Assembly: GCA_904502025.1 (NCBI GenBank)
Contig: CAJGDJ010000005.1
Location: 5,002 to 69,001 of the forward strand
Direction: 5' to 3'
DNA: 64,000 bases
Source: an uncultured Muribaculaceae bacterium
GTDB taxonomy: Bacteria > Bacteroidota > Bacteroidia > Bacteroidales > Muribaculaceae
Both the position numbers and the translations under genes were made by a program. Shown here in pieces: positions 10,943 to 64,000 of the stretch. The notes under the pieces were generated by a model that worked only from the letters and a program-made list of their open reading frames with translations, was not told the DNA's origin and ran no database searches. How positions within the stretch are numbered: the stretch's first letter is position 1; every line of letters starts with the position of its first letter.

Positions 10943-10951
10943 TATTTTAAG

Positions 10952-11022
10952 TTGTCTTACCAGGACTCGAACCTAGACAGGCAGAACCAAAAACTGCAGT
11001 GCTACCATTACACCATAAGACA
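10952..11022 (-). tRNA. tRNA-Gln (anticodon UUG)
   Basis: Manual cloverleaf. Acceptor TGTCTTA/TAAGACA, D arm GTGT-AATGGTA-GCAC, anticodon arm GCAGT-TTTTGGT-TCTGC (anticodon TTG), T arm CTAGG-TTCGAGT-CCTGG. 71 nt with no encoded CCA. Confidence 0.85.
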
Positions 11023-11059
11023 ATCCTTATTTGCCCAAGACTTCCGTCCTAAAGCGTTG

Positions 11060-11067
11060 CAAAGTTA
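11060..11067 (-). promoter_or_regulatory. -7 box TAACTTTG for tRNA-Gln
   Basis: TAnnTTTG, 37 nt upstream of the mature tRNA 5' end. Confidence 0.5.
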
Positions 11068-11108
11068 CGCACATTTTTTTTACTGTGCAAACTTTTTTGC
11101 AACTTTTT

Positions 11109-12401: not shown

Positions 12402-12444
12402 TATAGTATATTGTTATATTATTTTTCAATATTATTTTCAACTG

Positions 12445-12452
12445 CAAAGTTA
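12445..12452 (-). promoter_or_regulatory. -7 box TAACTTTG for tyrS
   Basis: TAnnTTTG, 43 nt upstream of ATG 12401. Confidence 0.55.
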
Positions 12453-12546
12453 CACAATAAATTTGTATTTACCCGATTATCAAAGACATTATTTATGAAG
12501 ATTAAATCATTAAATCTCATTTGTGTTAATTGTGAATTAAATGTGC

Positions 12547-12554
12547 TATCTTTG
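12547..12554 (+). promoter_or_regulatory. -7 box TATCTTTG for the DEAD-box helicase
   Basis: TAnnTTTG, only 4 nt before ATG 12559. This predicts a leaderless or near-leaderless mRNA. Confidence 0.5.
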
Positions 12555-12558
12555 TGGC

Positions 12559-23891: not shown

Positions 23892-25238
23892 TTATTCGAG
23901 GTAGCAAGCGTAAGGAACAACTGAAAGGTCGAGAGTGATTGTGTAAGTACCTGCAGCAGGAGCTTTGAGGTTAGCTCCACCAGGAACGAGTGTGTATTCA
24001 TCGTCTCCACCAAGGTTGATCGCCCAATCGTTGTTGCAACGGAACTTGTATTCATCTCCATCATTAAGAGTGATTGTACCGGTCCAGAAGATACCATCTT
24101 CTGAAGTAAGAGCCAATGATTCTGACCAACCATTGAAAGAACCGATAACACCGATAGTTTCAATCTTAGTCGCTTTCCAAGTCAATGCAGCGATATTAAC
24201 GTCACACCAATATAGACCACTTTCTGCGACTGTGAGGTCTTTAGCACCGCCATTGGTTGATAGTTTGCCTTCTTCACCACCGTCACCATAGTTGATGTGA
24301 TTCCAGTCAGCAGCTGAAGTAAATTTGAAACCACCTGTTGAAAGGTTAGCGAAACCGTAGTAGTTAGCGTAGTCAGTAGTTGACAACATCATTGATCCTC
24401 CGTGATTCCAACCGTTAGCATCACCAGGAGTCCAAAGGTTATCGAATGCAGGAGCAAATGAGTAAGTTAATGTTTCCATATTAACTGAAAGCACCCATGG
24501 ACCGAGAGTTGACATTGTTGCAAAACCTTCGCCTTCAGCCAATGTACCAACTAATTCGTCGGTTTCACTTGCTACAGGAGCATAAGCAAATTTCACTCCC
24601 TTGATAGCCCACTCGATAGGAGCCTCAATGTCAAGTTTTAATGAAAATACAGGGTTGTCATATTGGTCTCCTGAATGATTCAATGCAATAGTTTCACCAC
24701 CTTTTATAACGATGCTGTATGATTCTTCAATTTCATGAGCAGCAGGGAATGGTGTAACTGATACTTTGTGAGCTCCATAGTAAAGGTTAGGATTACCTAC
24801 ACGCACCGATGATGTTCCGTTTACCACGTATGCAGCAAAACGCACGTATGCATCTTGAGTTTTTGGATTTTTACCAAGCACTTTAAGGTGAGCAGCTTGC
24901 CAATCAGCAGGAGCAACACACACTTGATTATTAACAATCTCTGTTGCAACATCTTGAGCACCGGCAAAGTCTTCGTTTCCTGCCAATTGCATCACAAATG
25001 TCAATTCTCCTGCAGCAGGAAGATTTTGTGCTTGAACAACATTAAGTACCACAGCATTTGCTCCGGCATTTTCAAGTGCATTCAAGTCAAAAGTTGGATT
25101 CCCGACTGAAACTGTAATGCCTTCAGCCGACATAATTGGCTCTTGAGGGTTGCTTTGAGGTTGTGCTGGTTCATAATCCTCACACGCAGTGAAACCAAGC
25201 GCAAGAGCCGCCAATAACATTATGCTAAATTTTTTCAT
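23892..25238 (-). CDS. SusF/SusE-family outer-membrane glycan-binding lipoprotein
   Basis: Lipobox LGFTAC. Repeated CBM-like units such as GSFNGW...W..T..L..GDEYKFRCNNDWAINLGG. Fourth gene of the susC-D-E-F order. Confidence 0.7.
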   Translation of the reverse strand: MKKFSIMLLAALALGFTACEDYEPAQPQSNPQEPIMSAEGITVSVGNPTFDLNALENAGANAVVLNVVQAQNLPAAGELTFVMQLAGNEDFAGAQDVATEIVNNQVCVAPADWQAAHLKVLGKNPKTQDAYVRFAAYVVNGTSSVRVGNPNLYYGAHKVSVTPFPAAHEIEESYSIVIKGGETIALNHSGDQYDNPVFSLKLDIEAPIEWAIKGVKFAYAPVASETDELVGTLAEGEGFATMSTLGPWVLSVNMETLTYSFAPAFDNLWTPGDANGWNHGGSMMLSTTDYANYYGFANLSTGGFKFTSAADWNHINYGDGGEEGKLSTNGGAKDLTVAESGLYWCDVNIAALTWKATKIETIGVIGSFNGWSESLALTSEDGIFWTGTITLNDGDEYKFRCNNDWAINLGGDDEYTLVPGGANLKAPAAGTYTITLDLSVVPYACYLE

Positions 25239-25350
25239 ATTGTTTATTTCTCTTGATTTTTAACTTCTCGGAGTGTTGAGTGGATAGTGGTGCTACCCAC
25301 TCAATCCCGACAAATTATTGATTAATCATTTTTTATGAAATTAAATGTGA

Positions 25351-26223
25351 TTATTGTGCTACTTTTTCAAGAAGTACTGAATTCACATTCAAGTCAACAG
25401 TAATCTTCATTGGTGAGCCATCCCAGTTGTCAACTTGGATTGAACCCTTACCTGGAGCAACAAGAACTCCACTATACTTACCAGATGACATATCTACAGT
25501 AATAGGGTTATCATCAACTTGAGTACCTACAGATGCTCCACCATCCCAACCGGTCAATTCGGTATAGAAACGGAATGTGAGACCACCGGCTGGCATGTTG
25601 AATGTAGCAGAATAGATTTTACTACCGATAGCATCATCAGCTTCAAACAAACGCCATTCAGCCAATGCACCTGCATTACCGGCATCTGGGCCAGTCCAAC
25701 CACCAACACTACCAATCAAATAGATAAATCCTGGAGATTGAATAGCACAATATTCTTTCACTTGGTTTAATTTAACTACATTAGAAAGAATTTCGCTACT
25801 TTCTATACCTTTGATATAAGCACGCACACGGAAATAAACGGTACGAGCAGGCTCATCGGTATATTCTTCTTCACTTGTGATACCGCGAAGTTTACAAATC
25901 GCTTCAGCGATTCCTTTTGCAGATACTTGAGCATTACATAGTTTATGCTCTGCTGAAAGTTCTACAGAAGTAGAATCGGTGAAGTTTTCAATTAGAGAGA
26001 CTTGCACTTTGTATAGAGGTGTCGCTGCATATCCATAGTTTGGTTGCGACCAAGTGAAATCTATAGTACCATCTTCAGTGAGTTCATAATACTGATTAGC
26101 AAGAGCAGGAGTATTGAGAACAAACTCTGTTGGGTCATTATATTTAGGATCGGTATCCGCCTCACAACTTGTGAACGATAGAACGGCTACCAAGCATGCA
26201 AAAAGAATTGATATTTTTTTCAT
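25351..26223 (-). CDS. SusE-like outer-membrane lipoprotein
   Basis: Lipobox LSFTSC, an N-terminal SusE-type region (FVLNTP...FTWSQPNYGY) and a C-terminal W-rich CBM-like domain. Located downstream of the susD-like gene. Confidence 0.7.
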   Translation of the reverse strand: MKKISILFACLVAVLSFTSCEADTDPKYNDPTEFVLNTPALANQYYELTEDGTIDFTWSQPNYGYAATPLYKVQVSLIENFTDSTSVELSAEHKLCNAQVSAKGIAEAICKLRGITSEEEYTDEPARTVYFRVRAYIKGIESSEILSNVVKLNQVKEYCAIQSPGFIYLIGSVGGWTGPDAGNAGALAEWRLFEADDAIGSKIYSATFNMPAGGLTFRFYTELTGWDGGASVGTQVDDNPITVDMSSGKYSGVLVAPGKGSIQVDNWDGSPMKITVDLNVNSVLLEKVAQ

Positions 26224-26262
26224 TTTACTTTACTCTTGTTAAGATTCAACATTGAGTTTTGA

Positions 26263-27933
26263 TTAGTAGCCGGGGTTTTGTTCGTAACCTTGGAAACTGA
26301 TAACTGTAGAAGGAATTGGGAAGAGATTCATGTGAATAGGAGTAGCTGTACCACCTTTTGCCACATTACCTTTCCAGTTCCAGTTATAGTTACCACCGGC
26401 ATATTTGTTATGACGCACTAAGTCGGTGCGACGGCAGTTTTCGCCATAAAGCTCACGGCTACGTTCATTAAGAATATTTTCGGGAGTGAGCTGAGCCACT
26501 GTCCAAGGTTCAATCCAAGAACGTTCACGAACATAGTTTATATATTCAAGAGCTGCATTGCGATCACCCACGCCACCAAGCACTGCTGCTTCGGCTGCAC
26601 TCAAGTAAATTTCAGCAAGACGGATAACACACCAGTCAGCATCGGCAAACGCATTTGATGCAGGAGGATTCTTTGATTCATCAACACCACCAAACTCATC
26701 GTAAGCATAGTTGGTATATTTTACCGGCACGTAACCATCGGCAAAGTTAGTGATGTCGGCATTTTCGATTTTTGCACCATCTTTCTTAGTCATCCAAAGA
26801 GAAGCACGAGCATCGATTGAGTTACCTGCATCGTCCCAGTCAAAGCGTTCAGAGAGTTGTTGACGAGCATTCATACAAGTCCAAGAAGCGTTCAATCCGG
26901 TTGTGGCATTAGTCATGTTAAGACCTGGAGTTGAAGTTGAAGAACCTGCTGCGATGTAGAATGTAGTACCACCATAGTTTTGAAGTTTCAAACCATCTTG
27001 AGGAATACCCCAAATGATTTCATTCACGCGTGAACCTTGCGACATATATTCATCATTGTTTGCTCCAAAGAGGGCAATGTATGAGTCAGCAAGACCTGAG
27101 CCATTGAAACCTTCACCTTGGTGATGTTTGATGATTTTATCGCAGATAGCCCAACATTTGTCGTATGCAGGAGTTCCTGTAAACACACCTGCATTAAGAT
27201 AGAACTTAGCGAGAAGTGCATCACAAGCTTCTTTTCCTACGAAACCATAAGATGGTTCTTTATATGTGTCGCCCCATTCAGCCGATACGGCTTCAAGACC
27301 GGCAACAACCTTATTGTAAAGCTCAGCACGTTTCATTTGTGCAGGAGCAGTACCGGCAGGCATTGTTTCATCTTGATAACCTGCGTTACCAAACATGTCG
27401 ATTGCATAGAAGTAGCAAAGACCACGAAGCACTTTCACTTGACGTTTGTATTCTTGAGCTACAGGCAACAAGTTTTCAGTGAGATAGAAGTTTCCATTCT
27501 CAACTGTGCGGATAAATTCGTTGCAAAGAGCGATACAAGTGTAAATACGAGAGTATGTAGTGTACATCACACCATTATCAGCAGCAAATTGCATAGTTGC
27601 AAGTTCATATTGACCGGCGTCGCCAAATTGTTTCCATGCAAATTCATCGGTTGTCAATTCGTTACAAACGAATACGGCACGAGTAAACGAATTAGCACCG
27701 GCATCACCACCCGAAATGATAGAGCTACCGGGACCATTGTAACCCGAAGTTGCAAGAGATTGGTAACATTCGGTCAAAACACGATCCATATATCCCTTTG
27801 GGTCGTTCTTAAATTCTTCAGGGGTCAAATCGCTATAGTCAATTACCGGATTATTGAGGTCATCAACGCAAGAGGTCAAGCCAAGCGATGCAACCAATCC
27901 CAAAGCAATGAAAAATTTATTTATTGATTTCAT
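26263..27933 (-). CDS. SusD/RagB-family nutrient-binding lipoprotein
   Basis: Lipobox LGLTSC. 556 aa with a TPR-like SusD architecture, immediately downstream of the SusC-like gene. Confidence 0.88.
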   Translation of the reverse strand: MKSINKFFIALGLVASLGLTSCVDDLNNPVIDYSDLTPEEFKNDPKGYMDRVLTECYQSLATSGYNGPGSSIISGGDAGANSFTRAVFVCNELTTDEFAWKQFGDAGQYELATMQFAADNGVMYTTYSRIYTCIALCNEFIRTVENGNFYLTENLLPVAQEYKRQVKVLRGLCYFYAIDMFGNAGYQDETMPAGTAPAQMKRAELYNKVVAGLEAVSAEWGDTYKEPSYGFVGKEACDALLAKFYLNAGVFTGTPAYDKCWAICDKIIKHHQGEGFNGSGLADSYIALFGANNDEYMSQGSRVNEIIWGIPQDGLKLQNYGGTTFYIAAGSSTSTPGLNMTNATTGLNASWTCMNARQQLSERFDWDDAGNSIDARASLWMTKKDGAKIENADITNFADGYVPVKYTNYAYDEFGGVDESKNPPASNAFADADWCVIRLAEIYLSAAEAAVLGGVGDRNAALEYINYVRERSWIEPWTVAQLTPENILNERSRELYGENCRRTDLVRHNKYAGGNYNWNWKGNVAKGGTATPIHMNLFPIPSTVISFQGYEQNPGY

Positions 27934-27961
27934 AATTTATCTTCTTTACTTTAATTAGAGA

Positions 27962-30900
27962 TTAGAAAGTCGCAACCAAACCGAGAGTAGCAGTAATAGG
28001 ACGTGGATAAACATTGTTATCGATACCTGAGAATACTTCGGGGTCAAGACCTTTATAATTAGTAATTACGAATGGATTTTGAACTGCACCATACAAACGC
28101 AATTTGAGTTTGTCGTTAAACAAGTCAGTCCAAGTATAACCAAGTGTGATGTTATCGCAACGAACAAAGCTTGCATCTTCAAGGAAGTAGTCGCTACGCA
28201 CAAGGTTTGAGTTAGCACTTGCATCATTGAAATAGAAGTCGGTTTTCACAAGGTTGTTAAGACCATAGCGGTCAACAGTTGTGAGGTTTGATTTTGATGC
28301 AAGAACTGAGTTAAACACATAGTTGCCAAAGTTTGCACGGAGTTGGATTCCGAGGTCCCAATTTTTATAGTTAAATGTGTTATTCCAAGCAGCTGTGATT
28401 TTTGGATCACGAGAATGACGAATCACAAGGTCGTTATCATTAATTTCACCATCTTGGTTTTGGTCAACATATTGGTTTGGTAATGGGTTGCCATCTTGAT
28501 CATAAACTTGCTCTAACAACATGAAAGAGTATGCCGGATAACCTGCTTTGTGAACTTGAAGAGCACCTGCATTTTCTGAAGCAGGGTTACCTGCAGCTTG
28601 GAGATAGTAAGATTGATCTTCTTCATTAGAACCTGTCAACTTAGTCAACTCATTTTTGTTCCAAGCCACGTTAATACCTGTGCTCCAAGTGAAGTTTTTA
28701 GTTACAACCGGTTTTGCACCAATGTTAGCTTCAACACCAATATTGCAAAGCTCACCAATGTTGCGATCCATGAAGTTGGTAGTAGTCATACCGGCAGGAA
28801 CAGGCACGTAAGCAAGCAAGTCTTTAGTATCACGCATATAAGCTTCAATGCTTGCAGTGATGCGGTTATTCAACCATGCCATGTCGATACCCACGTTATA
28901 TGTTGTGGTTTCTTCCCATTTGAGGTCTTCTTGATAAGCTTTTGGATAAAGCGGACGAACCCATTGTTGGTCCTTTCCATCAGGAGATGGATAGTCACTC
29001 ACACCCGATGAAGTAGATTGAGCATATACAGGAAGATATGCATAATATCCACCTACAGCTTGTTGACCTGTAACACCCCAACCAAGGCGGAGCTTCAACT
29101 CATTCATTTTGTTCTTAGCCGATTCGAAGAAGCCCATTTCTGAGATTTTCCAACCAAGAGCTACTGATGGAAACAAGCCCCAACGTGTGTCGGGAGAGAA
29201 ACGTGAAGTTCCGTCGTTACGTAAGTTTACTGTCAAAAGATAAGTGTTATCAAATGTATAGTTCAAACGTCCGAAGAATGAAACAAGATTTAATTGACCT
29301 CTCCAAGGCAATGGCAACTCTTGATCTTCGTAAGTGTGTCCTACACGGAATGCCGAAGCAGGATTTACTTCTAAGTCATAAAGACCGGTAACAGGATCAT
29401 AAAAATTTGCCCATTCAAAGTTGCGATAACCAACAGAATTCATGAGCGTTTTGTTTGATCCATTGTAGTCAAATTGTTGCCATGAATAACCCACCATCAC
29501 GTCAAGATTTGACTTGATAGCTTCAAACTCTTTCTTATAGTTAGCATAGAAGTCAAGAAGCATGTTGTGTTGCACTTCATTATGATAGTAGATTGTACCT
29601 GCACCATCAGAATAGTTGCCACGCCATGCCATAGGTGAGTTTTGAGCAGTTGTGCTAACTGTTTTGTTCTTTGACACGTCATAACCGAGGTTCAAGTTAA
29701 GATGAAGCTCAGGAAGGAAGTGAAGAGCATAATCAATTTGAAGATTACCTGTTGAACGCAACACCTCTGCTGTGTTGTTAACGCATTCAAGCATTGCAAG
29801 AGGGTTGTTTGGAGAGTTGTCAAGAGGCTTACCTGAAGCATCGGTCAATGTAGTATAACCACCATATATTTTGGTTTTACCATAATCGGCCATGTTATAA
29901 TCAGTATAAACAGGGAGAGTTGGGTTGTAAGTAAGAGCAGCACCAACAGCTCCTTGGTCAGCCATTCGGTTTTTAATATAAGTACCATCGGCTTTTGCTT
30001 GAATAGAAAGCAAACCATTGAAGAATTTAGGAGTCAAATTGAAACCAACAGTTGTGCGGTCCATGCGTGAAGTTTCAAGAATACCATTGTTATTGGTATA
30101 TGAAGCAGAAACGCGATAAGGAAGGAAGCCTACTTGACCACCTACGCTTAAGCTATAGTCGTGAGACACTGTTGTGCGAAGCACTTCATCTTGCCAGTTA
30201 GTGTTAGCTGTTCCAAGTTGTGAAATTGCTGATTCAGTAGCAATTTGGTTCATAACCACATCACGGAATTCATCACCACTCATCACATCCCAAGTTTTGC
30301 GAGCTGTGTTAACGTGCATATTGGCAGTGAAGTTGATTTGAGGTTTACCACTCTTACCTTTTTTGGTAGTGATGATAATCACACCATTTGACGCACGAGA
30401 ACCATAAATAGCAGTTGCCGAAGCATCTTTCAAAATGGTCATAGACTCGATATTTTCGGGAGATACCATAGTCAATGGATTAGTACCACCATAACCTTGG
30501 TCGCTCAAGGGCACACCATCAAGCACGATTAATGGGTCGTTACTTGCACTCAAAGATGCACCACCACGAATACGAATAGTTGCACCACCTGTTGGATTAC
30601 CACCATCGGTTGTAACAACCACACCGGGAGAAGCACCCACAAGCATGTCTTGAGCCGAAGTAGAGATACCTGCCTCAATTTCATCGGGTTTAATCACTGC
30701 TACAGAACCGGTAGCGTCACTTTTCTTAACGGCACCATAACCAATGGCTACGACTTCGCCAAGCACTACACTGTTCTCTTGTAGAACTACATTAATTGTG
30801 GTTTGACCATTAACGGGAACTTCTTGAGTGTGATAACCCACATACGAAATCACAAGTGTCGCATTGGGATTCACTTGAAGCGTAAAATTACCGTCAAAGT

Positions 30901-31084
30901 CGGTTTGTCCACCTGTGGTTGTTCCTTGAACAAGCACACTGGCACCGATGAGTGGCTCACCGGCGGGATCACTTACAGTCCCTGAGACTGTAATCTTCTG
31001 CGCTAAAGCAGGGAAAGAAAGGCATAGCACCATCACAAGGGCGAGCCAGGCTTTCCGATTCATTTGAAAACAAATGTTCTTCAT
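27962..31084 (-). CDS. SusC/RagA-family TonB-dependent outer-membrane transporter
   Basis: N-terminal carboxypeptidase-regulatory-like domain ([18 protein letters not shown]), a plug with [27 protein letters not shown], and a terminal Phe. 1040 aa. Confidence 0.95.
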   Translation of the reverse strand: [1040 protein letters not shown]

Positions 31085-33297: not shown

Positions 33298-33312
33298 CAC
33301 AACGCCGAGAGT

Positions 33313-33351
33313 AAAAAAACTAAGCGAGCAACCCTTATGGATTGCTCGCTT
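33313..33351 (-). terminator. Terminator after the 1303-aa cargo gene
   Basis: Stem AAGCGAGCAA/TTGCTCGCTT followed by TTTTTTT on the minus strand. Homologous to the hairpin at 60334-60372. Confidence 0.8.
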
Positions 33352-33397: not shown

Positions 33398-36300
33398 TTA
33401 CTTAACGTAAACTTTAGATACTTTGTTGCCTTGGCGTTTGATGAAGATACCATTAGATGGTTCAACAACTTTCACACCTTGGAGGTTGTAGTATTCAACA
33501 GGAGCTTCTACTTCTTCCATTTCTTCAACTACGATATCTTTAACACCGCTTTGTTTAGGTTCAACAGCGAAGCAGAGTTTTTCAGCAACTGTTCCAGGAA
33601 CATAGTGGTAGATGTAAACTGAGTAGTCGTTGTTAGGAACTGCGATGATGCTACCCATACAAGCACCAAGACCTGCTTTTTGACCTTCAGTCCATGTAGC
33701 TACGCAAGTACCTTCTTCGTCATAGATTGCGAAGTTAGAACCACGAGTACCAGTTGTACCGTCAGTTGTTACAGGCATGATAAAGTATTTTTTGCCATAG
33801 AGTTCGAACCAGTCGAAACCTTCAACTGATGCGTTAGCAGTAGTATAGCTACCAGAAGCAGCACCAAATGTCCAAGCTTTAACCATATCTGAGTTGTCAT
33901 CGTTCCAAGCAAATACTGAACCTGGAGTACCACGAGAACGCATAATGAATGCATTTGAAAGGTCGCCATTGTCGTCCATAAGAGCGTCGATTTCAGCAAC
34001 AGTTTCGAATGCAGGTTGAGGACAGCAAGAAGTTGTCAAACCAACACCTGCGATAGCATTAGTAACTTGAGTGTATTCAGTATCTACAGCACCATTCTTA
34101 ATCTTAACAACAAGAACAGAAGTACCACCGTTAGGAACGATGAATGCATAACCACCTTCGTTTGAAAGCATGTTACCACGGATGCGGCCTAATTGGTCAG
34201 TACGAGCAGGAGTGTAACCTTCGATAGCGCTCAAGTCAATTTTGTAAGTTGATTTGAGGTCAGCAGAGATTACTGCGAAGTTCTTACCTGAAGCAACACC
34301 AGAGAAACCAGTTGATACGAGGAAGTTACCAGCATCGTCACAACCGATAGCAGTTGAGATAGTTTGACCGTAGTATTCTTTAAGAGCAGCTGAAGGATCG
34401 TAGTAAGTGTTATTACCTGTAGCTGTTACTTGTACGAGCAAGTTAGTTGATTTATCAGTTACGATAATCTTGTCGTTAGAAACAGCTGCGAAACGGAGTT
34501 CACCACCAGCAGCAGTACCAGGAACACTTGAAGTGTTTTGCCATACTTTAGTAAGACCTGTAGGAATAGCAGCTTCAGCAGTACCCTTAACAGCGATAGT
34601 CTTAGTTGCAGCACCTGCAGAAGTCAATGTGATAGTTGCATTGTGGCTACCGGCAGCAGATGGTTTGTAAGTAACAGTAATGTCACCACCGTCAGTACCA
34701 AGAGAAGTCTTATCGATAGAGAATGTAGAACTACCGGCAAGAGCAACAGAGATATTGCCGGTGAGCAATTCACCACCGATAGAAATCTTTTGAGAAGCAG
34801 ATTTACCTTCAACAGCTGTCAATGTTACTTCAGCAGGAGCAGTGATTTCAGGAACTTTTTCGTAAGTGTAAGTAGGAACTGTACCATTTTTGTAGTAAGC
34901 GATACCTTGGTTGTGAATCAATACCCACATTTCAACACCTTTGTCTCCGTTTACGTTAACACAGATGCTTGAAGAAAGAGTAGTGTTACGAGTTTTAGAA
35001 CTCATACCAGCTGATGGATAGCTACCTGAGTTCTTAAGACCTTCAACAGCCCAACCACCGCTACCATCGATGAGGATAGCACGACCACCGAGAAGAGTAG
35101 TAGTTTTGATTTCGTCAGCAGTAGCAGCAGAACCGGCTTTAGTTACAGCTTGATAGTCAGTTGCAAATGCATATTTGTTACCTTTGAATGTGAAAGGAAC
35201 GAAGTCGTTACCACAACCATGGAATGCAGCTTCGATGTTGAATGCTGTCAATGGAAGAGAAGTAGTCAATTGACCATTACCAGTGATTTGTGATGGCAAG
35301 TATTGTTGACCACATACCCAGTAGTTGTTACCTTCAGGAATAGCACGAGGAGACATACCGATGATGAAACCGTCGATATCAGCAACTACAGGAGTTTTTG
35401 ATGCAGTACCATTAGAAAGAGCATAAGTAACAAGTGAGTTACAGTTGCCGTTCTTAGTGTTACCATCAGCATCTTTATAATCACGAGTTTGTTGAGCTAA
35501 GTAAACGAGTTTACCGCTTGTCAAGTTACCTTGAACTTCGATAGCGTCACCAATACGAGTCATACCACCGAGGTCGGTAGTTTCAAGAAGTACGCGAGGA
35601 GCAGCATCATCATTATCCCAAATGTAAACTTTGAGAGTTTTCATTGTTTCATTAGTTGCCAATGCGATGTTAGTACCGATGATTTTACCATCAACGTAAG
35701 CAACGTCAACAAGTTTCAATGCACCACCTTCAACACCTGTCATGTTAAGGTCTTTGATGTGTTCAGCAGTTTGAGCTTTGATAACTTTCACAACACCATT
35801 AGCAGCATCAACTACATAAAGTTTACCGTCGCCAAATGCCATGTTACGATAGTTAGTCCAGTTAGCCATCCAAGTAGCTTTCTTGTTAGAATTTTCAGAG
35901 TAGTTCCATCCTTCAGTGAACTTCAATGGAGGGTTCTTAGCTGTACCGGTTACAACCATAGAAGCTTTGTGAGTTCCACTTACGAATGAGATAGTAGTAG
36001 AGTGTGACCCAGCTGATTGAGGTTTGTAAGTAACTTCAAATGTACCACCTGATGTGCCGAGAGAAGTTTTGTTGATAGAGAAGTTAGTGTTATCGCTATT
36101 TGAGATAGTGATGTTAGCAGAAAGTGAAGTACCTGTTACAGTAATAGTTTTAGCAGAAGTGTTACCTACAGCAGTTTCACCGAAGCCAGTAGAAGTTGGA
36201 TTCAATGAGATACCAGTGTCAACACCTTCGCTCATGTTAATATCGTTTTGAGTTGCAACATTGTTAGAAACAGATACTGTTTTAGTTACAGTTTTGTAAC

Positions 36301-37309
36301 CTGATTTCTTAAATGTAAGAGTATATGTACCAGCAGGAACGAAGAATGCATATACACCATTACATTTAGCACCAGTAGTTACAGTTTGGTTAAGATTATT
36401 ACCACTCAATGTTACAGTTACGTCGTTCAATGCGAGGTAAGAGTCACGGCCACGAGTTGTGTAGTTAGAGTAACCACAACCTTTAGAAGTGTCGCGAACG
36501 TCACCCACGATACAGCCAGGAAGTTGACCAGAACCACCAGGAGCAGTCAAACGTGCAACAGCGATTTGCCATGCAAGGAATTTGTTATAGAGTGAAGATT
36601 TGAAACGCAATGATTCAGGACGGTAGTCGTGGAACCAAGTTTCAACCAAGTAACCGGGTTGAGTGTTTGTACGAAGCACACCATAGTGCCATCCCATCAA
36701 GTCGTAGTCGGCCATTGAACGAGGTGTTCCGTAAGTATATTCTGACAAACAACCATTTTTATAGTTGTTATAAGAGTCCCAATATGCCATACGTTCTGAA
36801 CCACCAATGTGGTTAGAAGAGTTTTGACCTTTATAAAGAGCTACGTGGTAATTAGCACTTGCATTAGCACCGTTAGAGTGCATAGAGATGAAGTAACCAC
36901 CATAAGAAGATGAATAAGTAGCGATTGAAGTCAAGTTCAAGTCAGAAGAAGATGTGTTAGTTGTACGAGACATCTTAACAGTACCACCATTCTTTTCCAA
37001 GAATTTTTGCATGTGGAATGCACGGTCGAGGTTACCTTCTGATTCATAGAAATATTCACCACCTGAAAGCAATGGCATTGGAGTAGGACGGTCGTCTGAT
37101 TCGAAACCACCGTGACCTGCGTTCACATACCATTTACCACTCTTATTATAGTTAGAACTTATTGATGTATTTCCGTTCTTGTAGTTAGCAGGAGAAGAAA
37201 GCGCATAAGTTCCAGTATAGTTTGATGCTACATCATAAGCATAAGTGACAGCGTCGGCACCAAAAGCAACGCCAGCCATTAATAATGCTGAAATTAATAT
37301 CTTTTTCAT
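33398..37309 (-). CDS. 1303-aa multidomain T9SS cargo. Domain order: signal peptide, Amidase_3-like (MurNAc-L-Ala amidase), CarboxypepD_reg-like, two [Ig-like + ~340-aa beta-rich] modules, short C-terminal sorting signal.
   Basis: Amidase motifs NAGHGG (H66), YESEGNLDRA, SMHSNG (H144) and GVLRTNTQPGYLVETWF (E223). Repeated Ig-like segments FSI[ND]KTSLGT.GG..VTYKP..AGSH. C-terminus VEYYNLQGVKV..GIFIKRQGNKVSKVYVK. Confidence 0.75.
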   Translation of the reverse strand: MKKILISALLMAGVAFGADAVTYAYDVASNYTGTYALSSPANYKNGNTSISSNYNKSGKWYVNAGHGGFESDDRPTPMPLLSGGEYFYESEGNLDRAFHMQKFLEKNGGTVKMSRTTNTSSSDLNLTSIATYSSSYGGYFISMHSNGANASANYHVALYKGQNSSNHIGGSERMAYWDSYNNYKNGCLSEYTYGTPRSMADYDLMGWHYGVLRTNTQPGYLVETWFHDYRPESLRFKSSLYNKFLAWQIAVARLTAPGGSGQLPGCIVGDVRDTSKGCGYSNYTTRGRDSYLALNDVTVTLSGNNLNQTVTTGAKCNGVYAFFVPAGTYTLTFKKSGYKTVTKTVSVSNNVATQNDINMSEGVDTGISLNPTSTGFGETAVGNTSAKTITVTGTSLSANITISNSDNTNFSINKTSLGTSGGTFEVTYKPQSAGSHSTTISFVSGTHKASMVVTGTAKNPPLKFTEGWNYSENSNKKATWMANWTNYRNMAFGDGKLYVVDAANGVVKVIKAQTAEHIKDLNMTGVEGGALKLVDVAYVDGKIIGTNIALATNETMKTLKVYIWDNDDAAPRVLLETTDLGGMTRIGDAIEVQGNLTSGKLVYLAQQTRDYKDADGNTKNGNCNSLVTYALSNGTASKTPVVADIDGFIIGMSPRAIPEGNNYWVCGQQYLPSQITGNGQLTTSLPLTAFNIEAAFHGCGNDFVPFTFKGNKYAFATDYQAVTKAGSAATADEIKTTTLLGGRAILIDGSGGWAVEGLKNSGSYPSAGMSSKTRNTTLSSSICVNVNGDKGVEMWVLIHNQGIAYYKNGTVPTYTYEKVPEITAPAEVTLTAVEGKSASQKISIGGELLTGNISVALAGSSTFSIDKTSLGTDGGDITVTYKPSAAGSHNATITLTSAGAATKTIAVKGTAEAAIPTGLTKVWQNTSSVPGTAAGGELRFAAVSNDKIIVTDKSTNLLVQVTATGNNTYYDPSAALKEYYGQTISTAIGCDDAGNFLVSTGFSGVASGKNFAVISADLKSTYKIDLSAIEGYTPARTDQLGRIRGNMLSNEGGYAFIVPNGGTSVLVVKIKNGAVDTEYTQVTNAIAGVGLTTSCCPQPAFETVAEIDALMDDNGDLSNAFIMRSRGTPGSVFAWNDDNSDMVKAWTFGAASGSYTTANASVEGFDWFELYGKKYFIMPVTTDGTTGTRGSNFAIYDEEGTCVATWTEGQKAGLGACMGSIIAVPNNDYSVYIYHYVPGTVAEKLCFAVEPKQSGVKDIVVEEMEEVEAPVEYYNLQGVKVVEPSNGIFIKRQGNKVSKVYVK

Positions 37310-37312
37310 GGC

Positions 37313-38239
37313 TTATTTTTCTTTAATAGTCATTAGGAAAAGTTTACCATCTTCGGTGTGGAAAGCAATTTTGCTACCATCGGCACTAACCGCAGGGAAA
37401 GTTTTGATTTCAGAAGATGTAGTAGAAAGTTGTTGAAGGTTTTTACCATCGGCACCAACAATCATGATTTCACCTTTAGTGAGATAGTAACCATCATGGT
37501 CTTCGTTGTGACCTACGATATGGCTATTACCACGCCATTGAGGACAACCCATTTCGCCAAGGTTAACTACATTCTTACCATTGATGTCGCAAACATAAGA
37601 ATAATCTGCACAGTGGAAAAGAATTTTTGTTTGGTCGGGAGAAAGCGAAGTCCAGCAATATTGAGGATCCCAAGAACCGAATTGTCCTTTAAGAGGATCT
37701 AATTCAATGCGACGACCGTTGTTATAAACAACAATCTTAAGATCTTCTTCAGTAACGAAGATTTCGTTAGGCATTTGAACAGCTGAAATAGGGCGAGTTA
37801 CTTGTTTAGTAGTAACTTTACCTTGCAATCCAACAGAAACCTTACCATTCACAAAGTTAAAGCGGTTAAAGTGGTCAGCTTTTTGAAGAATAGCTGTACG
37901 CTCCAATGTGTTAAGGTTAATGCTGTAAAGCGAGTTACCTTGAATCTCATCGTCTTTTTGACGCACAATCAAAGTTTTACCATCTTCGCTGATAGCAGGC
38001 AACCAACCGGCACCACGCATGTCAGTGATTTTTTGATACTTTTGGGTTTTGAGGTCAATGATACCAAGACCATCATAACCGGCTGATGAAACCAAAAGAG
38101 AATTTCCATCGGGAGTAAACATAGGATGGAAAACATCTTCGGCTTCTACTGAAAGTTGTTGAGTACTAACAACTTCGAATTGCTGAGCTTGAGCTGTCAT
38201 AGCAGCTACTGCAGCGAGTGTCAACAGAAGTTTTTTCAT
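37313..38239 (-). CDS. TolB-like (PD40/WD40-like) beta-propeller protein with signal peptide
   Basis: Signal peptide ending AQAQQ. Repeated SPDG/SEDG/SADG-K-hydrophobic PD40-like motifs. The stop lies 3 nt before the ATG of the 1303-aa gene. Confidence 0.55.
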   Translation of the reverse strand: MKKLLLTLAAVAAMTAQAQQFEVVSTQQLSVEAEDVFHPMFTPDGNSLLVSSAGYDGLGIIDLKTQKYQKITDMRGAGWLPAISEDGKTLIVRQKDDEIQGNSLYSINLNTLERTAILQKADHFNRFNFVNGKVSVGLQGKVTTKQVTRPISAVQMPNEIFVTEEDLKIVVYNNGRRIELDPLKGQFGSWDPQYCWTSLSPDQTKILFHCADYSYVCDINGKNVVNLGEMGCPQWRGNSHIVGHNEDHDGYYLTKGEIMIVGADGKNLQQLSTTSSEIKTFPAVSADGSKIAFHTEDGKLFLMTIKEK

Positions 38240-38326: not shown

Positions 38327-38334
38327 CAAATATA
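38327..38334 (-). promoter_or_regulatory. -7 box TATATTTG for the TolB-like/amidase-cargo operon
   Basis: TAnnTTTG, 87 nt upstream of ATG 38239. Confidence 0.5.
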
Positions 38335-38426: not shown

Positions 38427-39236
38427 TCAGACTTTCTGACAAATTGAAACGAAAATACGACCTATAATGAATATTACAGCAAACAATATCACTATTATCG
38501 CTGCACATGGCACATTAATCATTGCCGACATAAACAGCCCTACCACTCCACACACAATAGAAATAACCATCGACAACAACACCATCATCTTAAATCGCGG
38601 AGCAAACATTTCGGCAATCATTTGAGGCAACGTGAGCATCGACATCAACAACATTATGCCTACAAGACGTATCGTAAGCACAATACACACAGCCACCATC
38701 GCTGTCATCAAGTATGAAATTACCTTTACCGGCAATTGCGACACTCGAGCAAAGTCTCTATCAAATGCACATGCAATGATTTTATCATAAAAAAGAGCAA
38801 AAAACAAAATCAAGATAATGGTATATATCGCAAATGCCACCAAATCGGAAGATGAAATTGTCAATATATTTCCAAAAAGGAACGCATTCAGCTCCGGGAC
38901 ATAACCGGGCGTGAGAAATATAAACAGCACCCCTATTGCCATTCCCAACGCCCACACCACAGCCGTGGCAGAATCTTCACGCACACGATAACGCTCCGAC
39001 AACCATTCCACGCCTGCCGAAGCCGTAATGGCAAACACGGCAGCCATCATTATTGGGTTAACCCCGAGATAATAGCCCAATCCGAGCCCACCGAAACAAG
39101 CATGAGTTACTCCACCCGAAATTGAAACCAATCGACGTGTGATAATATATGTGCCAATAAATGCCGCAGCGACACTTATTATTACAATGCCAAGCAAAGC
39201 ATTTGTAAAAAATGAATATTGCAACAGTTCAAACAT
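38427..39236 (-). CDS. Metal ABC transporter permease (ABC-3 / ZnuB-MntB type)
   Basis: Polytopic protein with ITRRLVSISGGVTHACFGGLGLGYYLG, resembling the ABC-3 signature. Start set at ATG 39234-39236 (MFELLQYSFF). Confidence 0.75.
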   Translation of the reverse strand: MFELLQYSFFTNALLGIVIISVAAAFIGTYIITRRLVSISGGVTHACFGGLGLGYYLGVNPIMMAAVFAITASAGVEWLSERYRVREDSATAVVWALGMAIGVLFIFLTPGYVPELNAFLFGNILTISSSDLVAFAIYTIILILFFALFYDKIIACAFDRDFARVSQLPVKVISYLMTAMVAVCIVLTIRLVGIMLLMSMLTLPQMIAEMFAPRFKMMVLLSMVISIVCGVVGLFMSAMINVPCAAIIVILFAVIFIIGRIFVSICQKV

Positions 39237-39295
39237 CTTAACTGATTTTCTACAAATTACACATATATTATATAACAATAAAAAAATATAATTTG

Positions 39296-46279: not shown

Positions 46280-49200
46280 ATGAAATATCGCCAATGCCGA
46301 CATATATTGCTTTTCTTCTCTGTGATTGTATTAATCTCAGCTCTTTTTTCATGTTCTGCAAAGAAAAACAATGCCGCCAATCGCAAATATCAAGCATTCA
46401 TCACCCGATATAACATCTACTTTAACGGCGACACTCATTTCAAAGAAACAATAAAAGAAATGGAGGGGAAATATGAAGACGATTATAGCCAACTGCTATT
46501 TATGCACCCTACCGAAGCTCGCATCAACACTAAAGCCCCTCAACCCAATGGCAATTTCGACCGCTCAATCGAAAAAGCTCAAAAAGCAATACAACTTCGT
46601 TCGATAACAAAACGTCCTAAGAAAAAATCGGGTAAACAAGATGCCAAATACAAAGAATGGCTTAAGCGAGAGGAATATAACCCATTCCTTCACAACGCAT
46701 GGCTAATGATGGGGCGTAGCCAATTTTTCAACGGCGACTTCCTTGGTGCGGCTTCGACGTTTTTCTACACCTCTAAACATTTTTGGTGGCTTCCTGAAAC
46801 CGTTCTTGAAGCGAAATTGTGGCGTGCTCGATGTTATTGTGCACTTGAATGGCTCTTTGAAACCGAAAACATTATCGTAAAAATTAAAGAGGACGAATTG
46901 TTAAACGACACACATCGCGATCTATACAACAACGTCTATGCCAACTATTACATCAAATTAAACGATTATGAAAAGGCTGTTCCTCACTTGCAAAAAGCAA
47001 TAAAATATGCAAAAGGAGAACAAAAAATACGCTTACAATTTCTTCTCGGACAACTTTATTCTCGTTTAGACAAAAAACAAGAAGCCTATGAAGCATTCAA
47101 AAAAGCCGGGAGTGCTTCAAATGCTACATATCGCACCAAATTTAATGCTCGCATAAAACAAAGCGAAGTATATTCAGGCGAAAACATCGAACCTGAAGTA
47201 AAAGCACTTAAACGCATGGTGAAATATGACCGCAACAAAGAATATCTCGACCAAGTTTACTATGCAATTGGCAATCTGTATCTCTCGCGTAAGGACACTC
47301 TTAATGCCATCGAAAATTATGAACTTGCAAATGAAAAAAGCACTCGAAACGGCATTGATAAAGCTATAAATCAAGTAACACTTGGAAACTTATACTATAT
47401 TCGACACAACTACGACAAAGCACAACCATGTTACTCCGAAGCTGTGCCACAATTGCCCGAAAACTATCCTAACTATCAACAAATAAAACGTCGCTCCGAC
47501 GTGCTTGATGAATTGGCTGTATATTCTCAAAACGTAACTCTTCAAGACTCTTTGTTGCGATTATCCGAAATGACTCCCGAGCAACTCAACAAAGTGATTG
47601 AAAAGATAATCGAAGAACTTAAAAAGAAAGAGGAAGAAGAAGCCGAAAATGCAAAACGAGAAGAATATCTTGCTCAACAACGTGCCCAAGGCTCAAATTT
47701 GCAAAACACAGGCAACTCTGCCCCTAAAACTTTCACTCTCAACACCGACGATTCTTGGTATTTCTATAATACCGCTACAAAGAATGCAGGGAAAACCGAA
47801 TTCCAAAAAACATGGGGTAGTCGAAAACTTGAAGACGACTGGCGACGCAGAAATAAAGCATCGTTTAATACCTCCGACTTTGAAAGTGGCAGCGATAATG
47901 AGTATGACGAAGATGCCGACAGCATTGTTGCCGGAGAAGATGCTCCCGAATTGTCGGAAGAAGAAATCAAGAGAGCTGAAGACCCTCATTATCCCGAATA
48001 TTATCTTAAACAAATCCCGAAAAACGATGTCGAAAAAACGACTTCCCACGAAATTATTCAAGAAGGATTATACAACATGGGGATTATCCTAAAAGATAAA
48101 ATGGAAGATTTCACAGCTTCTCGCTCTGAATTTAACCGATTGTTATCTCGTTATCCCGATAATATTTATCGACTTGACACATACTACAATATGTATATCA
48201 TGGCTGTTCGCGACAATAATGTTAACGAAGCCAATAAATATCGCGATTTGATTCTTGAGCAATTCCCCGAAAGTGGCTATGGCATCGCCATGCGTGACCC
48301 TAACTATTTCGAGAACCTCAAGATGATGAACACACACCAAGAAACATTATATGCAACTGCATACGACAACTATCTCAACAATCGCAACCAAGAAGTTCAT
48401 GACGCATATAAATACATGACTGAAAAATTCCCGCTCAGTCGCATCATGCCTAAATTTATGTTCCTTCATGCACTCGCATTCGTTACCGAAAACAATTCTG
48501 AACAATTCAACGCCACTCTAAAAGAATTGCTTGAAAAATATCCCGATACCGACATAACTCCTGTTGCATCGGCTTACCTCAAACAAATGGCTCAAGGGCG
48601 TAAATTAGAAAGCACTTCTTCCAATTTGCGTGGCATGATTTGGAGCACCCGACTAAGCAACGACTCTACTGCTAATGCCAATGCCGACAAACCGGCTGAA
48701 TTTACTATAAATGCTGCAGAGCCTCAACTATTGGTATTATTATTCCCCTCCGATAAAGTTTCGGCCAATCAACTTCTTTATGAAGTTGCTCGACACAACT
48801 TCACTTCTTTCACAGTCAAAGACTTTGACCTTGAATTAATGAACTTCGAGCAACTTGGATTGGTTATCATAAAAGGCTGCAATAACACTGATGAATTGAA
48901 ACAATATCGCAAAATAATGAATGAAAGTGCCGATTTCAAACTTCCACAACACGTGCGTCCGGTTGAAATCAGTGCAGCAAACTTTGATTTACTTATTAAA
49001 GAAGGGCGATCATTTGAAGAATACTTCAACTTCATTGGCGAAGAAGACTATAAAGCCACTGAAGAAAATGTGTTACCACCCGACGAATATGGCGAAAGTG
49101 AAGGAATACCTACTCCCGAACCAATAGTAGAAACGGCTGATAGCGTTCCCCCTGTTAAACAAGAGGAGGAACTGTCAAACAACATGACAACCGATAAAAA

Positions 49201-49357
49201 CATTCAATCGGCACAAAAAGAAAATAGCATAAATACTCCGGCAAAACAAAATAAAACGGTTCAACCCAAACCCGACCAAAATCAACAAAACAAGTCAAAA
49301 CAACCGACATATCCCACTGGGTCGGAGGGTGATGACCCACTTTTTGATATGCCTTGA
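46280..49357 (+). CDS. porW: T9SS periplasmic TPR lipoprotein PorW/SprE
   Basis: Lipobox LFSC followed by SAKKNNAANRKYQAFITRYNIYFNGD, which matches the SprE N-terminal pattern as I recall it. TPR-like repeats and acidic low-complexity regions. 1025 aa. Confidence 0.72.
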   Translation: MKYRQCRHILLFFSVIVLISALFSCSAKKNNAANRKYQAFITRYNIYFNGDTHFKETIKEMEGKYEDDYSQLLFMHPTEARINTKAPQPNGNFDRSIEKAQKAIQLRSITKRPKKKSGKQDAKYKEWLKREEYNPFLHNAWLMMGRSQFFNGDFLGAASTFFYTSKHFWWLPETVLEAKLWRARCYCALEWLFETENIIVKIKEDELLNDTHRDLYNNVYANYYIKLNDYEKAVPHLQKAIKYAKGEQKIRLQFLLGQLYSRLDKKQEAYEAFKKAGSASNATYRTKFNARIKQSEVYSGENIEPEVKALKRMVKYDRNKEYLDQVYYAIGNLYLSRKDTLNAIENYELANEKSTRNGIDKAINQVTLGNLYYIRHNYDKAQPCYSEAVPQLPENYPNYQQIKRRSDVLDELAVYSQNVTLQDSLLRLSEMTPEQLNKVIEKIIEELKKKEEEEAENAKREEYLAQQRAQGSNLQNTGNSAPKTFTLNTDDSWYFYNTATKNAGKTEFQKTWGSRKLEDDWRRRNKASFNTSDFESGSDNEYDEDADSIVAGEDAPELSEEEIKRAEDPHYPEYYLKQIPKNDVEKTTSHEIIQEGLYNMGIILKDKMEDFTASRSEFNRLLSRYPDNIYRLDTYYNMYIMAVRDNNVNEANKYRDLILEQFPESGYGIAMRDPNYFENLKMMNTHQETLYATAYDNYLNNRNQEVHDAYKYMTEKFPLSRIMPKFMFLHALAFVTENNSEQFNATLKELLEKYPDTDITPVASAYLKQMAQGRKLESTSSNLRGMIWSTRLSNDSTANANADKPAEFTINAAEPQLLVLLFPSDKVSANQLLYEVARHNFTSFTVKDFDLELMNFEQLGLVIIKGCNNTDELKQYRKIMNESADFKLPQHVRPVEISAANFDLLIKEGRSFEEYFNFIGEEDYKATEENVLPPDEYGESEGIPTPEPIVETADSVPPVKQEEELSNNMTTDKNIQSAQKENSINTPAKQNKTVQPKPDQNQQNKSKQPTYPTGSEGDDPLFDMP

Positions 49358-49383
49358 TATATTAACCTAAACAAATTTAAACA

Positions 49384-63180: not shown

Positions 63181-64000
63181 TTATTTTATGATTACTTTAT
63201 GAGCAATGCCTTGAGGACCTTTCACTACATAAATGCCGTCTGCAACATTGTTGAGGTCAATTGAGGTTTCGCCTTCAACAACTGATTCTGATGCTACAAC
63301 TTTGCCAGATAAATCATATACGTAAACTTCACCTGCAATAGCAGTGTTTATGTTGATAGTTTTACCTACAACAGAAACTGAAAATTCGTCAGCTTTATTG
63401 ATAGTTACATTTTCAACACCTGCTTCAGAAATGCCTGAACGAATTACAGGGCAGATAGCAAATGTAGCGTTTCCACCACCATAGCTTGCTACCGGACGCA
63501 TATAGTCGCTATCTCCTTCTTGGCGTGCAAATGAGTTATGTGAAAGTAGGTTGCTTTGCTCTACTTCATTCATTTTTTTTCCTTTAAGGTCGGTTAATAG
63601 GCAGAGGTCATCACTTGAAGGGTCGTTAGAGAATCCTTCGATTGAGATGAAGAAATAAGGTTTTCCGTATAGGTCGATAGGCTCATCGAGTGTGATATTT
63701 GCCACAGCTCCATCATAAGTCAATGCCCATGCTCCATTTTCACCGTCAGATTTAATGTCGGTATATTTTAGGTAAGCACCATTCAAAGGCATTGCAGTCA
63801 AAATCATATAAGAATCAGTGATAGTGGGCAACCACACTTGTACAGTGAGCCGAGCATCTTCCTTATATTTAGTTGGCTTTCTGTAGAAATAGACATTGAT
63901 GCCATCAAGGTAAGTATCGTCTTGTCCTACCATAAACAAGTTACCCCAACCTTTAATGTTTTTAGCGTTTGAACCGCCAAGGAATCCTTCACCTTCGCCA
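63181..64000 (-). CDS. T9SS cargo of unknown function. Only the C-terminal part is present; the gene continues past the window end.
   Basis: The reading frame stays open upstream of the listed Met to position 64000. It has a canonical type-A-like CTD (...EVYVYDLSGKVV...IDLNNVADGIYVVKG...HKVIIK). Confidence 0.65.
   Translation of the reverse strand, partial: GEGEGFLGGSNAKNIKGWGNLFMVGQDDTYLDGINVYFYRKPTKYKEDARLTVQVWLPTITDSYMILTAMPLNGAYLKYTDIKSDGENGAWALTYDGAVANITLDEPIDLYGKPYFFISIEGFSNDPSSDDLCLLTDLKGKKMNEVEQSNLLSHNSFARQEGDSDYMRPVASYGGGNATFAICPVIRSGISEAGVENVTINKADEFSVSVVGKTININTAIAGEVYVYDLSGKVVASESVVEGETSIDLNNVADGIYVVKGPQGIAHKVIIK

Follow-up and report, generated by a model that had tools for sequence, protein, structure and literature searches.

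Results

Two adjacent genes encode a propeller protein and a large amidase

We analysed 64,000 nucleotides (nt) of contig CAJGDJ010000005.1 from an uncultured Muribaculaceae bacterium, a stretch that we call the window throughout. Its minus strand carries two adjacent open reading frames (ORFs), at 37313..38239 for a beta-propeller protein of 308 amino acids (aa) and at 33398..37309 for a 1303-aa protein with a peptidoglycan amidase domain of the Amidase_3 family. The two genes accompany each other almost invariably in other genomes, and the propeller is, judged from this linkage and from natural fusions of the two proteins, a dedicated partner of the amidase. By analogy with its relatives the large protein would be exported through the type IX secretion system (T9SS), and we tentatively suggest that the propeller acts upon it as a detached prodomain. 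The features of the locus are as follows, in the direction of transcription.

38327..38334, minus strand: -7-like promoter box TATATTTG, 88 nt 5' of the propeller ATG, read from the sequence
37313..38239, minus strand: gene for the PD40-type beta-propeller protein, 308 aa (ORF, PD40 profile, linkage to the amidase)
37310..37312, minus strand: GCC spacer of 3 nt from the propeller stop codon TAA to the amidase ATG (sequence)
37250..37309, minus strand: predicted signal peptide of the large protein, aa 1-20, MKKILISALLMAGVAFGADA (sequence features; region conserved in homologs)
37136..37249, minus strand: N-terminal extension, aa 21-58 (alignment of N-termini)
36533..37135, minus strand: Amidase_3 domain, aa 59-259 (PF01520, family profile against the PDB, Foldseek)
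36224..36517, minus strand: carboxypeptidase-regulatory-like (transthyretin-like) domain, aa ~265-362 (PF13620)
35945..36214, minus strand: immunoglobulin (Ig)-like domain 1, aa ~366-455 (filamin, ASH and choice-of-anchor-D matches)
34910..35944, minus strand: beta-propeller module 1, aa ~456-800 (AlphaFold 2 model, match to 4ftd; no Pfam family)
34574..34882, minus strand: Ig-like domain 2, aa ~810-912 (BLASTP to Ig-like domain 1, strands in the AlphaFold 2 model)
33548..34573, minus strand: beta-propeller module 2, aa ~913-1254 (AlphaFold 2 model, match to 4ftd; no Pfam family)
33506..33547, minus strand: acidic linker, predicted to be disordered, aa 1255-1268 (model confidence below 50 at model residues 461-474)
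33401..33505, minus strand: short C-terminal tail, aa 1269-1303, ..VEYYNLQGVKVVEPSNGIFIKRQGNKVSKVYVK, presumed to be an abbreviated T9SS type A sorting signal
33312..33351, minus strand: terminator-like hairpin and T run, with a 13-bp stem of which 7 pairs are GC, 47 nt past the stop codon of the large gene

The ORF sizes and the 3-nt spacing from stop codon to ATG are as the original prediction, made from this DNA alone, had claimed: the junction at 37307-37315 reads TAA-GCC-ATG, and both ORFs lie in one frame. The box TATATTTG fits the Bacteroidetes -7 promoter consensus TAnnTTTG, no terminator-like site was found between the propeller and amidase genes, and the hairpin follows solely the large gene. 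The 5' box, the short gap and the position of the hairpin suit an operon, and we take the pair to be a self-contained bicistronic cassette. Fusion by stop-codon readthrough of the in-frame TAA GCC was considered and dismissed, and the shared frame is probably without significance, because gap lengths and frames differ among relatives. On the main axis of codon usage in the window, the two genes share an extreme with SusC/SusD and with another tail-bearing protein; the earlier claim of an optimal codon set is partly borne out by this comparison among genes of the window.

The amidase domain retains the catalytic residues of Amidase_3

The large protein matches Amidase_3 (PF01520) above threshold at aa 62-251 (35.9 bits, cutoff 27), which places the region singled out in the original prediction, aa 55-255, in this family; distant relatives score 40-70 bits on the same model. 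The four amidase motifs that had been claimed are all present, and their residues align to those of solved amidases. A PDB search with the amidase domain as a single sequence returned only a weak match to LytH, and therefore a family profile of 17 members (46-86% identity) was used. This profile matches 4rn7, 5j72 (Cwp6), 5emi (AmiC2), 7rag (CwlD) and 7tj4 (LytH), with the family motifs GHGG, YES, SLHSN and LVEtWF falling on the corresponding GHGG, E, H and E residues in these structures. The zinc ligands H66, E89 and H144 and the catalytic E223 align to these positions in 4rn7 and 5j72 and are invariant in the 17 aligned members. An AlphaFold 2 model of aa 22-800, with a mean predicted local distance difference test score (pLDDT) of 87.3, has the Amidase_3 fold, a twisted beta-sheet with helices on its flanks, when compared in Foldseek with LytH (7tj4; TM score 0.83 at 2.7 A), AmiC2 (5emi; 0.81) and 4rn7 (0.74). 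On alignment, the domain keeps every residue needed for cutting the bond between MurNAc (N-acetylmuramic acid) and L-Ala in peptidoglycan.

The activator-dependent amidases LytH, AmiB and AmiC have an Asp two residues after the third zinc ligand (His+2), which in LytH is the zinc-coordinating D195, and many self-sufficient amidases have an Asn at this position (PMC9245657). The window amidase lacks the Asp and carries Asn (H144-S-N146), in keeping with the family consensus SLHSN. Its spacing between H144 and E223 is 79 residues. Uninhibited amidases have roughly 65-70 residues between the third zinc ligand and the catalytic Glu, and AmiC has more than 79; judged by these customary spacings, the value suggests that a large blocking insertion of the AmiB/AmiC type is absent.

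The N-terminal extension (aa 21-58), rich in S, N and Y, occurs in some family members but not in all; the model gives its first 20 residues a pLDDT of 85-92. Homologs of the large protein are proteins from Muribaculaceae metagenome-assembled genomes (MAGs), usually called 'N-acetylmuramoyl-L-alanine amidase' where NCBI names them. A phage origin or an endolysin was dismissed, as just three weak and generic Amidase_3 matches occur in 2.9 million viral contigs.

The partner is a PD40 propeller distinct from TolB

The propeller protein begins with a predicted type I signal peptide (MKKLLLTLAAVAAMTAQA/QQ; ..TAQA/QQFEVV) and lacks both a lipobox Cys and a sorting domain. It matches the Pfam PD40 model (PF07676; 33 bits, cutoff 20.9), as do the distant orthologs tested, L061 and L073, and its family profile matches the propellers of TolB structures in the PDB (E 5e-7 to 1e-4). 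It had been described as a TolB-like or PD40-like propeller, of which the PD40 part is upheld and membership in TolB is rejected: on the TolB model TIGR02800 it reaches 43.5 bits against a cutoff of 343, and only the propeller repeats match. Like TolB it has a PD40-type beta-propeller, but unlike TolB it has no N-terminal alpha/beta domain and no tol-pal neighbours, its surroundings in the window being a metal ABC permease, aroA-like genes and the amidase. A relation to PorE, which combines a propeller with a carboxypeptidase-regulatory-like domain and a peptidoglycan-binding domain, was also rejected (16 bits, cutoff 600). The family of the propeller comprises hundreds of clusters at 50% identity, of ~300-aa proteins, which source databases name only as PD40-domain proteins or Tol-system components.

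The two genes are linked across Bacteroidota and Ignavibacteriota

A scan of one genome per species gave 580 loci of the amidase subfamily, of which 80 were kept, 77 of them with enough upstream sequence. In all 77, the gene immediately upstream of the amidase is on the same strand and encodes a propeller homolog, at a gap of -4 to +15 nt in 75. The linked propellers reach down to 23-34% identity to that of the window, in Ignavibacteriota, Prevotellaceae and Marinilabiliaceae, where the amidase is a protein of ~800 aa with a canonical sorting domain; the Ignavibacteriota members include Melioribacteraceae, and the linked loci span Bacteroidota and Ignavibacteriota. The reverse test employed a propeller profile led by a Melioribacteraceae sequence, which gave 565 metagenome loci. 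Of the 69 kept loci with room downstream, 68 have the amidase gene directly downstream of the propeller gene; the single exception has a different ORF within the 377 nt available. The co-conservation of the pair, proposed from one locus, is therefore near-universal in both directions. Clustering of flanking ORFs at 82 loci found only the propeller and amidase families to be conserved (79 and 78 loci, with the next family in 7), and a third conserved gene, whether for immunity, transport or recycling, was sought among these loci and not found. The pair is thus a unit of two genes that does not depend on its genomic surroundings.

The closest genome contigs are from Muribaculaceae MAGs, and several genomes carry two or more paralogous cassettes. 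No named cultured carrier of the cassette was found among the cluster members examined. We note that at three Ignavibacteriota loci (L067, L071 and L076) a second, more divergent propeller paralog lies directly upstream of the first, giving two tandem matches.

Natural fusions join half of the propeller to the amidase

The proteins P0496 (1025 aa) and P0502 (1179 aa) are natural fusions. Each opens with a signal peptide and a short N-terminal piece, to which half of the propeller, the C-terminal one, is joined; an Amidase_3 domain follows after a linker that has no further signal peptide. The propeller half of P0496 is 45% identical to aa 161-303 of the window propeller (E 5e-34). Following Amidase_3 there is a segment like the carboxypeptidase-regulatory-like domain, supported by Pfam in P0496 only, and then a Big_5 domain; P0496 closes with Por_Secre_tail, and in P0502 Big_2 repeats follow. 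The cluster of the P0496 form comprises 19 members, mostly of 1025 aa, on many independent contigs, and at the one locus examined no separate propeller gene lies upstream of it. For these reasons, and because a second signal peptide is lacking, we dismissed the possibility that the fusions are assembly artefacts. The fusions are Rosetta-stone evidence that propeller and amidase work as one physical unit, and near-universal adjacency and natural fusion together argue for a physical partnership. They also show that part of the propeller can travel with the exported enzyme.

An interbacterial effector with an immunity partner had been suggested for this locus. The amidase would then kill competitors, and the propeller would protect the producer and its kin in the periplasm. 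In favour of this suggestion, a lytic domain is encoded next to a small periplasmic protein, and the presence of two or more cassettes in several genomes and the mosaic nature of the C-terminal modules, as in polymorphic effectors, would also suit it. However, an external enzyme cannot pass the outer membrane of Gram-negative kin, and immunity therefore seems needless; the partner gene lies upstream and not downstream; the catalytic domain is the conserved part, while the variable parts are binding modules; and propeller and amidase domain show no co-variation. The fused forms, moreover, export part of the partner, and P0496 in particular disfavours a classical immunity role bound to the periplasm, because it fuses half of the propeller to an amidase and a sorting domain. 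A partner bound to the enzyme, in the manner of a prodomain or cofactor, suits the fusions better. We consider a toxin-immunity pair improbable.

Ig-like and propeller modules make up most of the large protein

The carboxypeptidase-regulatory-like domain that had been claimed is confirmed (PF13620; 33.2 bits, cutoff 32.3) and recurs in every distant relative that was tested. A further structural match of the model is carboxypeptidase D (1qmu), in which a catalytic domain is followed by a transthyretin-like domain, in parallel to the amidase and regulatory-like domains here. Ig-like profiles match at aa 366-448. The original prediction had further described a duplicated module of an Ig-like and a ~340-aa beta-rich part. 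The duplication is apparent by sequence for the Ig-like domains, which are 41% identical (BLASTP, E 1e-15), whereas BLASTP detected no similarity between the two ~340-aa parts, and Pfam and NCBIfam scans of both gave no usable family match. By structure, however, both have the same best match in the PDB, 4ftd (module 1, E 1.3e-13; module 2, E 2.6e-12), the second being taken from an AlphaFold 2 model of aa 795-1303 with a mean pLDDT of 90.2; the next structural matches are the filamin-NHL part of Lin41 for both modules and CyRPA for module 2. Because the models match 4ftd, we read the architecture as signal peptide, amidase, carboxypeptidase-regulatory-like domain, two successive units of Ig-like domain and propeller, and tail. 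The structure 4ftd (BACEGG_03550 of Bacteroides eggerthii, family DUF4623) likewise combines an Ig domain with a beta-propeller, but unlike that family the window modules have no sequence-profile match to DUF4623, and module 2, with its DUF4623-like fold, represents a domain family that lacks annotation.

In Muribaculaceae, module 2 is also a very common stand-alone secreted protein of ~400 aa with the same tail (P0255-P0360), often joined by an Ig-like domain, and it is found fused to CBM26 (in a 'starch-binding protein') and to NAGPA domains. Some relatives of the large protein are 88-89% identical to it over aa 22-800 and only 19-27% identical in module 2, with one relative showing the reverse. 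Module 2 and the tail are thus swapped among otherwise 88-89% identical proteins (P0037, P0044 and P0046). Together with a propeller identity that is uncoupled from amidase identity (see Discussion), this mosaic family points to frequent recombination at the locus.

With more than 60% of the protein given over to Ig and propeller modules of the adhesin kind, which also occur alone with the same tail, the protein could be a surface adhesin or scaffold whose amidase domain only binds peptidoglycan, for co-aggregation with Gram-positive bacteria. This is very improbable, since the four catalytic residues are invariant in all 17 members, even where the amidase domains are as little as 46% identical, whereas derivatives that only bind usually lose catalytic residues. 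The strict partnership with the propeller would also be left unexplained.

The short C-terminal tail resembles an abbreviated sorting domain

A T9SS-type tail had been claimed for the large protein. As a profile match this claim fails, and because the tail falls short of both TIGR04183 and PF18962 the window protein is not a recognised type A cargo by membership. The claim has indirect support: the canonical domain in relatives, the presence of the same tail on cargo-type proteins, and PorW and PorX in the window. In hhalign the short tail aligns to the canonical sorting domains of the family (probability 80-82%, E 1e-5); compared with these it appears to have lost three internal stretches and to have retained the YxLxG and GIYI...KVxVK strands. 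The family as a whole ends in sorting domains of type A. Several relatives with a best-segment identity of 56-83% score above TIGR04183 or PF18962 where the window protein has its tail, among them P0034, which is 70% identical to the window protein and has its TIGR04183-positive domain at the position of the tail; relatives in Melioribacteraceae, Marinilabiliaceae and Prevotellaceae also have a sorting domain there. In the structural model the tail forms three short strands (pLDDT 64-82) after the disordered acidic linker.

The same short tail ends a Peptidase_C10 protein with an Inhibitor_I69 prodomain (locus L054, in a related Muribaculaceae MAG), as well as Omp28-like, CBM26 and NAGPA proteins. 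C10 proteases and BspA-type leucine-rich repeat (LRR) proteins are typical T9SS cargo. Within the window, a 907-aa protein with RCC1 and BspA-type LRR regions (60425-63148, minus strand) carries the same YNLQG tail, 74% identical over 31 aa. The ORF just upstream of its gene (63181..63939, minus strand) ends in a canonical type A sorting domain, and since the two adjoin, the organism appears to use both tail types side by side. PorW/SprE (674 bits, cutoff 250) and PorX (830 bits, cutoff 300) are encoded by adjacent genes at 46280-50925 on the plus strand, ~9 kb from the cassette. We regard export of the window protein by the T9SS, through an abbreviated sorting domain of 35 aa, as probable, with good though indirect support from these analogies.

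A third variant of the tail was observed in some members of the family, in which Dockerin_1 takes the place of the sorting domain (41.8 bits in L023, at 9878-13729; also in L032, L041, L064, L069 and L078). Dockerins on amidases of Bacteroidales-type MAGs would imply an unknown cohesin partner or an alternative mode of anchoring.

An ordinary periplasmic housekeeping amidase that is not exported, and that serves recycling or cell separation alongside a TolB-like helper, would accord with the usual periplasmic location of Amidase_3 enzymes in Gram-negative bacteria, with a tail that T9SS profiles do not recognise, and with the resemblance of the propeller to those of TolB. However, relatives carry bona fide T9SS sorting domains, and a protein of 1303 aa with exchangeable surface-type modules and several paralogs per genome is not what this account would lead one to expect. 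Nor does it fit that the H144-E223 spacing shows no sign of AmiB/AmiC-type blocking, that no LytM partner is encoded nearby, or that the propeller fails the TolB model and has neither an N-terminal TolB domain nor adjacent tol-pal genes. Among the accounts considered here, we give this one the least credence.

Neighbouring genes

Just 5' of the cassette, at 38427-39278 on the minus strand, lies a gene for a zinc/metal ABC transporter permease that is AztB/ZnuB-like at scores below cutoffs. The amidase is a zinc enzyme, yet this neighbouring permease is not conserved at other loci. On the other side, just beyond the cassette and an aminotransferase gene, a SusC/SusD pair and two downstream lipoprotein-like genes (23892-31084, minus strand) form a polysaccharide utilisation locus. 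The codon-usage extreme is common to this locus and the cassette, and no link between the two was seen in other loci.

Discussion

Our preferred reading of these data is that the cassette encodes a peptidoglycan amidase that is exported by the T9SS and, as its dedicated partner, a propeller that acts as a detached prodomain, conferring latency or serving as an escort; we hold this tentatively, at slightly less than an even chance. Both proteins would reach the periplasm, where the soluble PD40 propeller would bind the amidase and keep it folded and harmless to the wall of the producer until export. The large protein would fold in the periplasm and then leave through the T9SS, for the cell surface or the surrounding medium, a route that follows from reading its tail as an abbreviated sorting domain. 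Outside the cell, and here the support is weaker, the amidase may act on foreign peptidoglycan, either wall debris or the exposed walls of Gram-positive bacteria, with the Ig-propeller modules as putative targeting or binding units. By analogy with the N-terminal prodomains of other T9SS enzymes, the role of the partner, which is the weakest step of this reading, is probably one of latency or escort. Four considerations favour the detached-prodomain role: T9SS cargo folds beside the producer's own wall; the enzyme looks self-sufficient, being of the Asn type and apparently without a blocking helix; the partner gene stands first in a tightly coupled operon; and the fused and free forms mirror the prodomains and free-inhibitor pairs of other secreted hydrolases.

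Each element of this arrangement has parallels in known systems. LytH-ActH of S. aureus, CwlD-GerS of C. difficile and AmiA/B/C-EnvC/NlpD of E. coli pair an amidase of the same Amidase_3 family and fold with a dedicated partner, as does the window cassette. Such partners, although unrelated in fold (TPR, a beta-sheet lipoprotein, LytM), converge on control of the amidase (PMC9245657). In contrast to those systems, a PD40 beta-propeller serves as the partner here, and none of the partners discussed in that paper is reported to have this fold; the amidase belongs to a T9SS cargo family, has Asn at His+2 and apparently carries no blocking insertion. Gingipains and C10 proteases with I69 prodomains are hydrolases that fold in the periplasm ahead of T9SS export, latent through an N-terminal inhibitory or chaperone domain, and the window amidase is proposed to behave likewise. 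The C10 protease of L054, with the same tail as the window protein, is a precedent from the same secretion context. The window propeller is, however, unrelated to the gingipain and C10 prodomains and is a separate polypeptide with its own signal peptide. Its occurrence in fused and separate forms mirrors the contrast between a prodomain in cis and Spi, the free inhibitor of SpeB, in trans. The Tae-Tai pairs of the type VI secretion system likewise place the gene of a cell-wall amidase next to that of a small periplasmic protein, but here the partner gene lies upstream, the secretion system is another, delivery to a target periplasm is not evident, and the partner is partly fused in some lineages. 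Tae effectors are not known to be Amidase_3 enzymes.

Several observations weigh against a latent, T9SS-exported enzyme with a detached prodomain. The last 104 aa of the window protein have no Pfam or NCBIfam match even at E<=10 and its tail fails all sorting-domain profiles, so that export is argued by analogy. LytH and CwlD, the closest structural neighbours of the amidase, are activated and not inhibited by their partners. The fused forms carry half of the propeller along with the enzyme, and an inhibitor so placed would need to be removed outside the cell, for which we saw no evidence of a cleavage site. At locus L013 the amidase is 87% identical to that of the window and the propeller 54%; because propeller identity does not track amidase identity, there is no sign of tight cognate co-variation. 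The -7-like box on which the operon reading draws is short and AT-rich and could be a chance match. More generally, sequence evidence does not separate inhibition from activation, chaperoning or co-export.

The most serious competing explanation is that the propeller is an activator or cofactor subunit. It would bind the amidase and either stabilise its metal site or present the substrate, in the manner of ActH with LytH and of GerS with CwlD, and the two would be exported as a holoenzyme. The best structural matches of the amidase, LytH (TM score 0.83) and CwlD, are indeed activated by partners and have no blocking helix, the fusions show that the C-terminal propeller half can be exported in one chain with the enzyme, and a tight 1:1 operon fits a stoichiometric subunit. 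The fusions and the structural neighbours fit this explanation and the detached-prodomain reading equally well. Against it, the Asn at His+2 is that of activator-independent amidases and not the Asp of LytH, AmiB and AmiC, and an always-active holoenzyme in the periplasm would endanger the producer's wall. The free propeller, moreover, has no sorting domain and could be co-exported only by piggy-backing on the amidase. We know of no established case of piggy-back co-export in the T9SS. We therefore judge the activator explanation unlikely, though the least so of the alternatives to the detached-prodomain reading.

The original prediction knew of no described system of this kind. This is borne out, as neither the literature that we searched nor a review of T9SS cargo contains a description of an exported Amidase_3 enzyme paired with a PD40 propeller; that review makes no mention of amidases (PMC11205867). 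Partner-controlled Amidase_3 enzymes and T9SS cargo are already known, and what is new is an exported Amidase_3 family tied almost invariably to a PD40 propeller. A more far-reaching view, which we think possible but rather doubtful, is that the PD40 propeller represents a new structural class of Amidase_3 regulator, a detached prodomain that keeps a T9SS-exported amidase latent in the periplasm, that the cassette is the long-sought system with which T9SS-bearing Bacteroidota and Ignavibacteriota forage on or lyse the walls of other bacteria in gut and sediments, and that the 35-aa YYNLQG tail is a natural minimal export signal of the T9SS.

The significance of the cassette lies first in the problem that it may solve. 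T9SS cargo folds near the wall of the producer, and for the safe transit of a wall-cutting enzyme a dedicated partner would be a concrete and testable answer. To our knowledge, the safe passage of wall-cutting T9SS cargo has not previously been addressed. If the proposed role is correct, the propeller would add a fourth unrelated fold to the partners of Amidase_3, beside the LytM, TPR and GerS-type proteins. The short tail, if functional, would offer a compact export signal for engineering. Members of the Cytophaga-Flavobacterium group grow on the peptidoglycan of Bacillus cereus, whose walls they break down (Peterson 2006, as cited in PMC11205867), and an exported amidase may explain such feeding on Bacillus peptidoglycan. 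In the gut, where Muribaculaceae are abundant, an amidase exported by them could recycle wall debris, attack Gram-positive neighbours or destroy muropeptides that stimulate NOD receptors.

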